Positions 2,874-6,177 of a DNA stretch of 6,249 nt are shown here, in pieces (the stretch's first letter is position 1; the number at the start of each line of letters is the position of its first letter). This stretch comes from a virus (Duplodnaviria > Heunggongvirae > Uroviricota > Caudoviricetes), in IMG/VR virus record IMGVR_UViG_2675903336_000006; one strand, written 5' to 3'. A program made the translations under genes and the position numbers. Below the pieces are notes generated by a model. The model saw only the letters and a program-made list of their open reading frames with translations, searched no databases and had not been told where the DNA came from.

Positions 2874-3254
2874 ATGACCGAGCGCATAGAATTTGTTTTA
2901 CCTTACCCGCCGACGGTGAACACTTACTGGCGTCGTCGTGGCAGCACATATTTTGTATCAAAAGCCGGGGAGCGTTATCGCCGGGCAGTGGCGCTTATTG
3001 TTCGCCAGCAGCGGCTGAAATTAAGCCTGTCCGGAAGGTTGGCAATAAAAATTATTGCAGAACCACCGGATAAGCGCCGCCGTGACCTGGACAATATTCT
3101 GAAAGCGCCGCTGGATGCGCTGACGCATGCGGGGTTGCTAATGGACGATGAGCAGTTTGATGAAATCAATATCGTTCGTGCTCAGCCAGTATCTGGTGGA
3201 CGTCTGGGGGTGAAGATTTATCCCATAATGCTTGAAGGGCAGGTCAAAAAATGA
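2874..3254 (+). CDS. rusA: RusA-family Holliday junction resolvase
   Basis: 126 aa; LPYPPTVNTYWRRRG, PDKRRRDLDNILKAPLDALTHAGLLMDDEQ and GGRL closely parallel E. coli RusA (LPWPPSNNRYY..., [30 protein letters not shown], GGRL) as I recall it; SD GGAAAG upstream; stop overlaps the Q start. Confidence 0.85.
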   Translation: MTERIEFVLPYPPTVNTYWRRRGSTYFVSKAGERYRRAVALIVRQQRLKLSLSGRLAIKIIAEPPDKRRRDLDNILKAPLDALTHAGLLMDDEQFDEINIVRAQPVSGGRLGVKIYPIMLEGQVKK

Positions 3255-4072
3255 AACTGGAAGATTTACCGAAATACTACTCCCCAAAATCCCCCGGCCT
3301 GACTGATGCATCGGCCTCAACGTCGAAAGATGCGCTGAGTATCACTGATGTGATGGCCGCGCAGGGCATGACACAGAATCGGGCTGAGATGGGGGTTTCT
3401 GCGTTCCTTGGGAAAATGGGCATTAGTATGAATGACAGAGAGCGGGCAACAGAATTGCTGACAGAATATGCACTCAGTCGGTGTGATCGCGTGGCGGCGT
3501 TAAGAAAACTCCCGGCAGAAATAAAACCGGCAGTGATGCGTATTATGGCTTCGTATGCGTTTGAAGATTATGCCCGTAGCGCGGCGAGCAAAAAACAGTG
3601 CCCCTGCTGTCACGGAAAAAAATTTATTGAAAGCGAGGTTTTTACAAACAAGATCCAGTATCCGGATGGTAAGCCGCCGGTATGGGCAAAGTGTACGAAA
3701 GGTGTGTATCCGTCTTACTGGGAAGAATGGAAAAAAGTCAGGGAGGTGGTAAAAGTTGCCTGTCCGGAGTGTGGCGGAAAGGGTGAGGTTTCCACCGCCT
3801 GTAAGGATTGCCGTGGGCGTGGTGTCGCCATTCATCGTGAAGAGTCGGTAAAACGTGGTATGCCTGTTATCAGAGACTGCCAGCGTTGTGGTGGTCGTGG
3901 CTATGAAAGACTACCATCAACGGAGGCATTTAATGCTATATGCGAGGTGACAAACCAGATAACACGCGCGTCATGGGAAAAAACAGTTAAGAAATTTTAT
4001 GATGCGCTGGTGACCCGGTTTGATATTGAAGAAGCATGGGCTGAGCGGCAGTTAAAAAAGGTAACTAGGTAA
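3251..4072 (+). CDS. Q: Lambda-family late-gene antiterminator Q, 273 aa, with an extra Cys-rich insertion
   Basis: Blocks matching my memory of lambda Q: YSPKSPGLTDASASTSKDALSITDVMAAQGM vs HSPKSPMMSDSPRATASDSLSGTDVMAAMGM; ASYAFEDYARSAAS vs ATFAYADYCRSAAT; CKDCRGRG / CQRCGGRGYERLP vs CRDCHGTG / CGRCKGVGYSRMP; C-terminal TVKKFYDALV...VTR vs TVKPLYDALV...VTR. Followed at once by a pR'-like promoter. Confidence 0.8.
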   Translation: MKLEDLPKYYSPKSPGLTDASASTSKDALSITDVMAAQGMTQNRAEMGVSAFLGKMGISMNDRERATELLTEYALSRCDRVAALRKLPAEIKPAVMRIMASYAFEDYARSAASKKQCPCCHGKKFIESEVFTNKIQYPDGKPPVWAKCTKGVYPSYWEEWKKVREVVKVACPECGGKGEVSTACKDCRGRGVAIHREESVKRGMPVIRDCQRCGGRGYERLPSTEAFNAICEVTNQITRASWEKTVKKFYDALVTRFDIEEAWAERQLKKVTR

Positions 4073-4077
4073 CAAGG

Positions 4078-4120
4078 TTGATTTTTCCGGAATCTGTGGT
4101 AAATTCGTCATAACGATGGG
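4078..4120 (+). promoter_or_regulatory. Late promoter pR' with qut-type pause element (-35 TTGATT 4078-4083, extended -10 TGgTAAATT 4097-4105, AACGATGGG 4112-4120)
   Basis: Six nt after Q stop; -10 TAAATT identical to lambda pR'; AACGATGGG sits 6 nt after the -10 exactly as in lambda pR' (TAAATT-TGACTC-AACGATGGG), where AACGAT is the sigma-dependent pause signal. Confidence 0.6.
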
Positions 4121-4154
4121 CGTTTTATGCCTGACGTTAGAAGAGTTTCTACAA

Positions 4155-4176
4155 CCCGCCGCCGAGCGGGTTTTTT
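4155..4176 (+). terminator. tR'-like rho-independent terminator downstream of pR'
   Basis: CCCGC(4155-4159)-CGCCGA-GCGGG(4166-4170) followed by TTTTTT(4171-4176); about 65 nt from the predicted +1. Confidence 0.55.
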
Positions 4177-4296
4177 ATGACTGAAATCGCGTCAGTACAG
4201 TAAACGCGCTGGTGGCGGTGAATACCTGTCTTTCAGCTTGCTGGCTTTTTCGACAAGAGTTATTGGTGTGTCACGTTAACCGGAAAAGGAAAAGAC

Positions 4297-4494
4297 ATGC
4301 TAAAACAGCAGGATATGACAGAAACCGCCAGAGTGGTGTTTAATGAATTAAGCGTTACCGAACCGGCGACAGTCGGGGAGATAGCGCAGAATACTTACCT
4401 TTCACGCGAACGCTGCCAGTTAATACTGACCCAGCTGGTTATGGCGGGTCTGGCAGACTATCAGTTCGGTTGTTACAGACGCCTTCCGCAGTGA
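4297..4494 (+). CDS. Small hypothetical protein, 65 aa, with helix-turn-helix-like segment (ATVGEIAQNTYLSRERCQLILTQLVMAGL)
   Basis: ORF in track; purine-rich SD-like AAAAGGAAAAG before ATG; stop codon sits in the loop of a terminator hairpin. First ORF downstream of tR'. Confidence 0.45.
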   Translation: MLKQQDMTETARVVFNELSVTEPATVGEIAQNTYLSRERCQLILTQLVMAGLADYQFGCYRRLPQ

Positions 4495-4504
4495 AGGCTT
4501 TTTT
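4481..4504 (+). terminator. Rho-independent terminator overlapping the stop of ORF 4297..4494
   Basis: GCCTTC(4481-4486)-CGCAGT-GAAGGC(4493-4498) followed by TTTTTT; stop TGA 4492-4494 lies in the loop. Confidence 0.55.
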
Positions 4505-4522
4505 ATTTGTGGTAAATGGGCG

Positions 4523-4551
4523 GCTGGTGGGTGTTAGGGGCACCCACCAGC
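4523..4551. repeat. Perfect 11-bp inverted repeat (hairpin) whose arms are Chi and complement-Chi
   Basis: GCTGGTGGGTG (4523-4533), 7-nt loop TTAGGGG, CACCCACCAGC (4541-4551); no U-run follows, so not a classic terminator. Confidence 0.6.
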
Positions 4552-4626
4552 CATCTGCTCATGCGTTGGGTTCACAAGCAAACCTCAGGCCCACTGCTTT
4601 GCGCAAAAGCAGAATGAGCCTATCAG

Positions 4627-4891
4627 NNNNNNNNNNNNNNNNNNNNNNNNNNNNNNNNNNNNNNNNNNNNNNNNNNNNNNNNNNNNNNNNNNNNNNNNNN
4701 NNNNNNNNNNNNNNNNNNNNNNNNNNNNNNNNNNNNNNNNNNNNNNNNNNNNNNNNNNNNNNNNNNNNNNNNNNNNNNNNNNNNNNNNNNNNNNNNNNNN
4801 NNNNNNNNNNNNNNNNNNNNNNNNNNNNNNNNNNNNNNNNNNNNNNNNNNNNNNNNNNNNNNNNNNNNNNNNNNNNNNNNNNNNNNNNNNN
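4627..4891. other. Run of 265 N (masked or unsequenced gap)
   Basis: Direct observation; all ORFs crossing it in the track are artefacts of translating N as X. Confidence 0.99.
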
Positions 4892-4892
4892 A

Positions 4893-5420
4893 AAACAGAT
4901 TGCAGATGCCACAGGAAAGAAAAACATGGTGTCGCACTGGTTCAGTGCCGGTCAGTGGCAGTTGCCGAATGAAAGCGATTATCTGAAATTACAGGCGCTG
5001 TTTGCCCGGGTGGCAGAAGAGAAGCATCGGCGTGGTGAACTGGAAAAGCTCCACCACCAGCTGGTGGATACGTATACCTCACTGAACCGGCAGTATGCGG
5101 AGCTGCTGAGTGAATATAAACATCTGCGGCGGTATTTTGGCGTGACGGTGCAGGTGCCGTATACCGATGTGTGGACGCATAAACCGGTGCAGTTCTATCC
5201 CGGGAAACATCCGTGCGAAAAACCGGCAGAAATGCTGCAGCAGATAATCAGCGCTAGCAGTCGTCCGGGTGACCTGATTGCAGATTTTTTCATGGGGTTG
5301 GGTTCGACAGTGAAAGCGGCACTGGCGCTCGGGCGTCGTGCAATTGGCGTTGAGCTGGAGACTGAACGTTTTGAGCAGACGGTTCGGGAAGTACAGGATT
5401 TAGTCAGCCAGAACGGATGA
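4893..5420 (+). CDS. Beta-class N6-adenine/N4-cytosine DNA methyltransferase, C-terminal portion (5' end lost in the N gap; internal ATG 4926 with SD AGGA 4913-4916 is an alternative start)
   Basis: HPCEKPAEMLQQIISASSRPGDLIADFFMGLGSTVKAALALGRRAIGVELE matches the HPxxKP...D-FxGSGTT...GR-xIGIE C-terminal signature of N6_N4 MTases (CcrM-like), from memory. The catalytic DPPY motif is not in the visible part. Confidence 0.7.
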   Translation, partial: KQIADATGKKNMVSHWFSAGQWQLPNESDYLKLQALFARVAEEKHRRGELEKLHHQLVDTYTSLNRQYAELLSEYKHLRRYFGVTVQVPYTDVWTHKPVQFYPGKHPCEKPAEMLQQIISASSRPGDLIADFFMGLGSTVKAALALGRRAIGVELETERFEQTVREVQDLVSQNG

Positions 5421-5460: not shown

Positions 5461-5536
5461 GGCCCTTTAGCTCAGTGGTGAGAGCGAGCGACTCATAATC
5501 GCCAGGTCGCTGGTTCAAATCCAGCAAGGGCCACCA
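5461..5536 (+). tRNA. tRNA with CAU anticodon, most like tRNA-Ile2 (lysidine-modified; ileX/ileZ-like)
   Basis: 76 nt folds as cloverleaf: acceptor GGCCCTT/AAGGGCC, D-stem GCTC/GAGC, anticodon loop CTCATAA, T-arm GCTGG-TTCAAAT-CCAGC, discriminator A, encoded CCA; overall close to E. coli ileX as I recall it. Confidence 0.85.
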
Positions 5537-5577: not shown

Positions 5578-5845
5578 NNNNNNNNNNNNNNNNNNNNNNN
5601 NNNNNNNNNNNNNNNNNNNNNNNNNNNNNNNNNNNNNNNNNNNNNNNNNNNNNNNNNNNNNNNNNNNNNNNNNNNNNNNNNNNNNNNNNNNNNNNNNNNN
5701 NNNNNNNNNNNNNNNNNNNNNNNNNNNNNNNNNNNNNNNNNNNNNNNNNNNNNNNNNNNNNNNNNNNNNNNNNNNNNNNNNNNNNNNNNNNNNNNNNNNN
5801 NNNNNNNNNNNNNNNNNNNNNNNNNNNNNNNNNNNNNNNNNNNNN
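5578..5845. other. Run of 268 N (masked or unsequenced gap)
   Basis: Direct observation. Confidence 0.99.
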
Positions 5846-5970
5846 GAATCCCCCTGTGCGGAGGGGCAATCAGCGAGTAGGTATATGGGATAATCGCGGA
5901 TTCAGGTGCTGGTACTGAATTCACCGGGAGGCACCCGGCATCATGCAATGGCACATAGCGCCACTCTCCA

Positions 5971-5994
5971 GCCCTCTCCGGAGGGGCTTTTCTG
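5971..5994 (+). terminator. Possible rho-independent terminator
   Basis: GC-rich imperfect hairpin GCCCTC-TCCG-GAGGGGC (one bulged G) followed by TTTTCTG; T-run on + strand only. Confidence 0.3.
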
Positions 5995-6177
5995 TGCCGG
6001 ATACATCACAGTTTCTGGAACCTTAGGTACTACAGTATCAGTCAGGGTGCTATATTTTCAGATGTGATGAAAGCCTGTCAGCAGGCAGGGCGTATCGGAA
6101 ATGACCCAGTAGAGAAAACGTTGACTCAGATACCGGTGCTGAGTTACCGGGAAACCGGCATCACATGACCGCTATCC

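Follow-up and report, generated by a model that had tools for sequence, protein, structure and literature searches.

The late antiterminator Q of phage lambda (207 amino acids (aa); PDB 4MO1, 7UBJ-7UBN) is among the closest described relatives of the protein considered here. In lambda Q, the helix-turn-helix of the helical body engages positions 1-4 of the Q site, and the arm swings by about 75 degrees to contact positions 11-13, its tip (residues 133-137) contacting sigma region 4 and residues 110-112, 117 and 122-126 the beta' zinc-binding domain of RNA polymerase (PMC9388147). The N-terminal 60 residues, which are disordered in free Q, refold together with NusA into a nozzle, or torus, at the RNA-exit channel (PMC9388147). 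Further relatives are Q of phage phi80 (gp17, 269 aa) and YdfT/QuuQ of the Qin prophage of E. coli K-12 (250 aa). In this study, we analysed a stretch of 6,249 nucleotides (nt) from the Caudoviricetes virus record IMGVR_UViG_2675903336_000006 (the window), in which a gene at 3251..4072 encodes a Q-like protein of 273 aa. It is very probable (roughly 0.85) that this gene is a standard late antiterminator Q of the lambda family (PF03589) from a Qin/phi80-like lambdoid prophage, that it has the usual arm of four cysteine knuckles, in which a segment called module A is likely a second zinc ribbon, and that lambda Q derives from such a form by loss of this module. The feature is real but ordinary; the same architecture occurs in phi80 Q and in the K-12 gene.

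The gene and its parts, all on the + strand, are as follows.
3251..4072, +, Q antiterminator gene, ATG to TAA, 273 aa plus stop, lambda-Q family (PF03589)
3251..3430, +, N-terminal ~60 residues, by alignment to lambda Q 1-60 the counterpart of the segment that refolds into the RNA-exit-channel torus
3431..3589, +, first half of the helical body (aa 61-113) with the conserved end ...DYxRSAAS, from the lambda Q alignment and the model
3590..3793, +, module A (aa 114-181), not in lambda Q, predicted second zinc ribbon, from alignment, motifs and model
3599-3622, +, knuckle 1, CPCCHGKK, aa 117-124, from the sequence
within 3590..3793, +, predicted beta-hairpin of module A, strands aa 125-136 and 159-170, hypervariable tip aa 137-158, from model and conservation
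3761-3784, +, knuckle 2, CPECGGKG, aa 171-178, from the sequence
3794..3916, +, module B (aa 182-222), lambda-type zinc-ribbon arm, 1.7 Å over 42 columns to 7ubn_Q
3800-3823, +, knuckle 3, CKDCRGRG, aa 184-191, from the sequence
3878-3901, +, knuckle 4, CQRCGGRG, aa 210-217, from the sequence
3917..4069, +, second half of the body (aa 223-273), homologous to the helix-turn-helix and C-terminal helix of lambda Q, from alignment, model and Foldseek

An earlier note, made from the bare letters of this DNA, had called the gene a lambda-type Q antiterminator that aligns with lambda Q along its length, is about 66 aa longer and carries in the extra segment two Cys-pair motifs beyond the two that correspond to the lambda Q zinc finger, and all of these claims were confirmed. 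The protein matches PF03589 with 179.2 bits (cut-off 26.7; E 1.6e-53), and the 253-position profile of PHROG 127 ('anti-termination protein Q-like', 6e-112) covers the whole query including module A; a search of the NCBIfam library found no dedicated model for it. Genes of 97-98% identity in E. coli genomes are annotated 'antitermination protein'. Among all PDB chains, the only strong phmmer match was lambda Q (7ubm_Q, E 3.5e-41), with end-to-end homology at ~32-40% identity, and 7ubn_Q was also the top Foldseek match of the predicted structure (E 2.8e-14, template modelling score on the target 0.65), strong sequence and fold matches being confined to the lambda Q structures. Query residues 1-113 align with lambda Q 1-113 and residues 182-273 with lambda Q 116-207, and the 68 residues in between (114-181, nt 3590-3793) replace two residues of lambda Q, which gives a net difference of exactly 66 aa (273-207). 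Both proteins share the N-terminal refolding segment, the helical body and an arm with Cys pairs 26 residues apart, whereas lambda Q, without residues 114-181 and their two knuckles and hairpin, is left with one zinc site. Every computationally testable feature of the lambda-Q family (PF03589) was found in the 273-aa protein, and likewise those of the four-knuckle subgroup (phi80 Q/QuuQ type).

The four CxxCxGxG motifs start at residues 117, 171, 184 and 210, with spacings of 54, 13 and 26. When the protein was shuffled 100,000 times, a mean of 0.005 and a maximum of one such motif was obtained, and the four motifs are therefore not a product of chance. Among 107 homologs of 55-97% identity, the eight Cys and the motif Gly are invariant. 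Motifs 3 and 4 (C184/C187 and C210/C213) are the counterpart of the lambda Q zinc site, with which they share the 26-residue spacing and to which they are aligned by HMMER. The hairpin tip is the least conserved region of the protein in close homologs, with a majority-residue fraction of 0.48, compared with 0.78-0.90 for the body, the lambda-type arm and the strand of knuckle 1 and 0.66 for the segment formed by the second strand and knuckle 2. A full-text search, in a collection without Guo and Roberts 2004 (phi80 Q) and Vorobiev 2014, returned no paper on the four-knuckle arm or on the role of its second zinc module and variable hairpin.

Proteins of this length and Cys pattern are abundant. 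Of 5426 complete E. coli genomes, 2478 carry the Q gene by megablast (≥80% nucleotide identity and ≥80% coverage). Phage records with a match numbered 249; in 131 of them, among these phi80, ES18, Fels-1, mEp460 and Stx2c phages, the match runs through the whole 273-aa query without a break, and in lambda, P22, HK97 and HK022-like phages it falls into two pieces that flank a gap. Near full length (258-277 aa) were 106 of the best 120 protein homologs, with all four CxxC motifs present in 104 of them; of the two that deviate, P0039 retains the Cys pair of motif 1 and has Ala in place of the motif Gly. Two clusters headed by proteins of 97% and 94% identity, which bear the name 'antitermination protein', contain 3739 and 4648 sequences, respectively. 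The depth of the family was assessed by an all-against-library HMMER search with representatives of 50%-identity clusters, about 40 of which are complete. In ~28-31 of these, motif 1 is followed by a variable stretch of 10-59 aa (a step of 14-63 residues), motif 2, a fixed step of 13, motif 3 as CxxC or CxC, a step of 25 or 26 and motif 4, and only ~6 are two-knuckle forms like lambda Q. The four knuckles are also present in YdfT (40% identity) and in phi80 Q (41% identity over the full length), the latter with CxC at motif 3. The hairpin of phi80 Q is clearly homologous (VFTNKVSYPWGKPPYWSK in phi80 and VFTNKIQYPDGKPPVWAK in the window protein), and that of YdfT, between motifs 1 and 2, is shorter. 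Judged from these sequence collections, the four-knuckle length and Cys pattern is the usual form of the lambda-Q family, and lambda Q is a shortened exception.

The earlier note had taken the extra segment for an unusual insertion carrying a duplicated module. Neither description was upheld, and the polarity has to be reversed. The idea of an unusual insertion does not pass the test that the note had set for itself, under which this length and Cys pattern should not prove common among family members. In a comparison of body columns only, with the arm left out, each two-knuckle form had a four-knuckle form as its nearest relative: lambda Q is nearest to P0125 (260 aa, 49% identity), P0180 also to P0125 (39%), P0260 to P0159 (41%) and P0162 (200 aa) to P0131 (269 aa, 83%), the last of which is only ~45% identical to other long forms. 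The short forms are thus scattered among the long forms (polyphyletic), which argues for repeated deletion of residues 114-181 and not for an insertion in the window protein; by this comparison, lambda Q looks like a deletion derivative without module A. Three of the short lineages have a CxC-type first knuckle, and among long forms CxC occurs only at motif 3. Therefore, motifs 3 and 4 are the ones that were retained.

The AlphaFold2 model, built from 107 sequences, has a mean predicted local distance difference test (pLDDT) score of 79.8, with values of 62-86 across the module and below 50 at residues 1-27. In this model, a short strand (114-116) precedes motif 1, and strands 125-136 and 159-170 (12 residues each) form a hairpin with a low-confidence tip that includes a short helix. 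Motifs 1 and 2 lie at the base of the hairpin, motif 2 directly after it. Motif 3 comes nine residues on and is followed by the strand-helix-strand succession of the lambda arm and by motif 4; in an arm-only model, module B superimposes on the arm of 7ubn_Q over 42 columns with a root mean square deviation of 1.7 Å and 38% identity. As modelled, module A most likely forms a zinc ribbon of its own, the second of the protein and separable from module B, with which it stands in tandem; its beta-hairpin is hypervariable. A pairing of the knuckles as 1+2 and 3+4, unlike the interleaved 1+4 and 2+3 pairing of DnaJ, seems rather likely, because motifs 1 and 2 are lost together and motifs 3 and 4 have lambda geometry, and because the hairpin lies between motifs 1 and 2, whose distance tolerates 10-59 residues.

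The earlier note had also placed a pR'-like promoter and a terminator behind the gene, and both were recovered.
4078..4105, +, pR'-like late promoter with -35 TTGATT (4078-4083), a 16-nt spacer and extended -10 TGgTAAATT (4097-4105), read from the sequence and aligned with lambda, phi80 and K-12 Qin pR'
4085-4091, +, candidate Q-binding element TTCCGGA, at the same position as the annotated phi80 Q site TCGCGGA
4112..4120, +, sigma-dependent pause element AACGAT followed by GGG (AACGATGGG), 6 nt past the -10 exactly as in lambda pR', from sequence and alignment, with the role taken from PMC9388147
4153..4178, +, intrinsic terminator with a 7-bp stem (5 GC pairs) and a T-run, found by scan and conserved in E. 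coli 6817 and K-12 Qin

The assignment of the promoter rests on an alignment with the lambda, phi80 and K-12 Qin promoters and with a 98% identical E. coli locus. As expected of a lambda-Q family member, the gene is followed closely by a late promoter, a sigma-dependent pause element near that promoter and a terminator. With lambda, the locus has TAAATT, the pause sequence AACGATGGG and a terminator in common, whereas the Q-binding spacer sequence of lambda pR' differs. Lambda has a longer leader, its terminator lying ~190 nt from the transcription start (6S RNA); the leader of the window would be ~70 nt long up to the terminator if its start site is lambda-like. In phi80, the annotated Q site adjoins the -35 like TTCCGGA in the window; the phi80 Q protein differs in sequence and in presumed DNA specificity, and the pause element reads AACGCT. 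Leader and terminator are very similar to those of K-12 Qin, where the -10 is ATAAAA. The stretch from 4106 to 4178, which includes the leader between pause element and terminator (GGGCGTTTTATGCCTGACGTTAGAAGAG...), is conserved with K-12 Qin (locus L003, 6370-6440, - strand) despite the 40% identity of the Q proteins, and no Rfam family was matched in it.

Counterparts of all lambda Q segments with a described contact or refolding are present in the 273-aa protein by alignment. By homology with lambda Q, the Q-binding element between the -35 and -10 of the neighbouring pR' would be bound by the helical body. With RNA polymerase paused at AACGAT, the zinc-ribbon arm would touch DNA, sigma region 4 and the zinc-binding domain of beta'. 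The N-terminal 60 residues would, with NusA, take up the nozzle fold at the RNA-exit channel, and the polymerase would then transcribe past the terminator at 4153-4178 and reach the late genes. In the alignment, module A falls precisely between lambda residues 113 and 116, that is at the hinge of body and arm and within the segment that contacts beta' in lambda Q. From this position, module A may alter the mechanics of the hinge or add a contact, which is speculation. It is possible, though on balance doubtful, that module A serves as a functional specificity or loading element and touches RNA polymerase, sigma region 4 or DNA further upstream. In that case, the structural picture of Q loading drawn from lambda would represent a minimal outlier and leave out part of what happens in most family members. 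Whatever its role, the arm of lambda Q known from textbooks is a reduced form, and the family default has a second, putative zinc module whose hairpin is hypervariable, which should be considered whenever the lambda Q cryo-electron microscopy model is extended to Q proteins of E. coli prophages or other lambdoid phages. As a discovery this carries little weight, with thousands of copies in databases and the DnaJ-like motifs already flagged by precomputed Pfam.

Several observations count against the reading of the gene as a standard, functional Q with two tandem zinc ribbons. Cluster P0193 has a motif-1/2-like knuckle together with motif 4 and a motif 3 without Cys, which fits a simple tandem poorly, and the spacing of 13 between motifs 2 and 3 is that of the single zinc site of anti-TRAP, to which there is a weak alignment. 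Frameshifted copies of the window Q allele exist in databases, the prophage may be cryptic, and a generic sigma-70 promoter scan did not call pR', because only 8 of 12 positions match. The first two points would suit a true DnaJ-type Cys-rich domain with interleaved zinc centres (1+4 and 2+3), in which case lambda Q would have re-paired its remaining knuckles after losing two. The likeness to the DnaJ Cys-rich domain that had been noticed at the outset stands at the level of the motif, with four CxxCxGxG knuckles as in DnaJ and weak sequence and fold matches to this domain and to anti-TRAP. PF00684 gave 30.1 bits against a cut-off of 32.7, a result we regard as borderline because a newer precomputed Pfam run lists PF00684.26 for many, indeed most, of the homologs. 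TIGR02349 aligns residues 163-218 to positions 138-197 of the DnaJ profile and to these only (27.9 bits, cut-off 377), and anti-TRAP, in which we take the Cys pairs to be 14 residues apart, aligns to motifs 2-3. At the level of the domain the likeness fails: PF00684 stays under its cut-off, profile searches of the 273-aa protein matched neither a J domain nor DnaJ_C, the likely zinc topology differs, and the knuckle spacing, which we take to be 17/22/14 in E. coli DnaJ, is 54/13/26 here. Moreover, motifs 1 and 2 were lost jointly at least three times, leaving as the working pair motifs 3 and 4, which bind zinc in lambda Q (PMC9388147). The lambda geometry modelled for module B, the hairpin modelled between motifs 1 and 2, and the length variation between these two motifs, which is easiest if one zinc holds both ends, point the same way. 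An interleaved arrangement is thus unlikely, and module A is probably not a DnaJ-type domain.

A lineage-specific insertion or duplication in a lambda-like 207-aa Q, giving rise to an unusual variant, would leave a protein that resembles a 66-aa insertion when it is set against lambda Q alone, as the 273-aa protein does. One motif is common to all four knuckles, and local alignment of unit A with unit B is weakly significant (p ~0.03 for the window protein against Cys-preserving shuffles). However, the long form predominates in E. coli genomes, phage records and cluster representatives, module A is homologous between proteins of only 30-40% identity including phi80 Q, the short forms are polyphyletic, and the two units, which are the halves of the arm, are alike only within the 8-residue knuckle motif. 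An internal duplication of the whole module was rejected as unsupported for the last reason, and we consider an origin by insertion extremely improbable. The remaining objections concern function. The gene might be an intact-looking remnant in a cryptic prophage that no longer acts as an antiterminator, and module A would then be irrelevant here. The synteny of hok/sok, DUF968, rusA and Q matches the cryptic K-12 Qin prophage, and frameshifted or truncated copies of the allele are frequent in databases, among them 166-aa forms (76 members) and a 272-aa form without motif 1. On the other hand, the open reading frame (ORF) is full length with every family-invariant residue present; promoter, pause element and terminator are intact, the aligned region 4066-4178 showing one mismatch to other strains, in the terminator loop; and the phage record mEp460_ev081 carries the same allele at 96% protein identity. 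A decayed gene appears improbable on this evidence, and a standard four-knuckle Q remains the preferred reading.

Upstream of Q, the window contains the following features.
912-1087 and 1025-1237, hok/sok toxin-antitoxin locus, sok RNA with 112 bits against Rfam RF01794
1815-2873, gene for a DUF968 protein with a weak HNHc_6 match (YdfU-like), two genes upstream of Q
2874..3254, +, rusA (Holliday-junction resolvase), stop overlapping the Q start

The overlap of the rusA stop with the ATG of Q forms the sequence ATGA, which suggests translational coupling of the two genes. The order sok/hok, DUF968, rusA and Q is the nin-region order of Qin-like prophages. The neighbours in K-12 Qin are alike, with hokD and then DUF968 (ydfU) immediately upstream of Q, but rusA is absent between ydfU and Q. 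The Hok-family ORF of the window is hokD-like, its longest ORF having an N-terminal extension. In phage record LR597641.1 (locus L005, 68-1117), a homologue of the DUF968 gene bears the name 'Phage antitermination protein Q', apparently in error.

Past Q and pR', at 5461-5536, there is a tRNA called as Met (anticodon CAT). In E. coli 6817, which has a 98% identical Q locus, tRNA-Ile and tRNA-Arg directly follow Q, as in the late regions of Stx phages. The differing tRNAs indicate that the region past the terminator is mosaic. The window contains masked N runs at 4627-4891 (265 nt) and 5578-5845 (268 nt). An ORF at 4470-5420, which encodes a DNA methylase (PF01555) in its C-terminal part, is broken up by the first, and the second lies within and upstream of a match to the small RNA STnc100 (5817-5999).

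Within the DNA of module A there are three A6/A7 runs (3590-3595, 3616-3622 and 3731-3736), and database variants are frameshifted exactly at these positions. The 166-aa truncations ending in ...EEWKKSGRW (P0071, 76 members) correspond to a -1 shift at 3731, and P0124 to a shift at 3590 into the frame of ORF 3555-3752. In P0005 (272 aa, 16 members, contig of 5.57 Mb), two shifts that compensate each other, at 3590 and 3616, erase motif 1 alone. The frameshifts in the A runs may be sequencing errors, decay or phase variation. Three further proteins (P0194, P0196 and P0202; 210-326 aa) have motifs 2-4 and a QuuQ-like C-terminal body on unrelated N-terminal sequences and are probably mosaics or fusions that arose by recombination within the arm-coding region. 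In P0001 (337 aa, a single member on a contig of 1.8 kb), residues ~96-178, and with them motifs 1 and 2, occur a second time towards the N terminus, which probably reflects either a local tandem duplication or an artefact of assembly. Finally, a Q homolog from Serratia (P0029, 258 aa, 58% identity) bears the NCBI name 'chaperone protein DnaJ', presumably a mis-naming that arose from a match to the CxxCxGxG motif.
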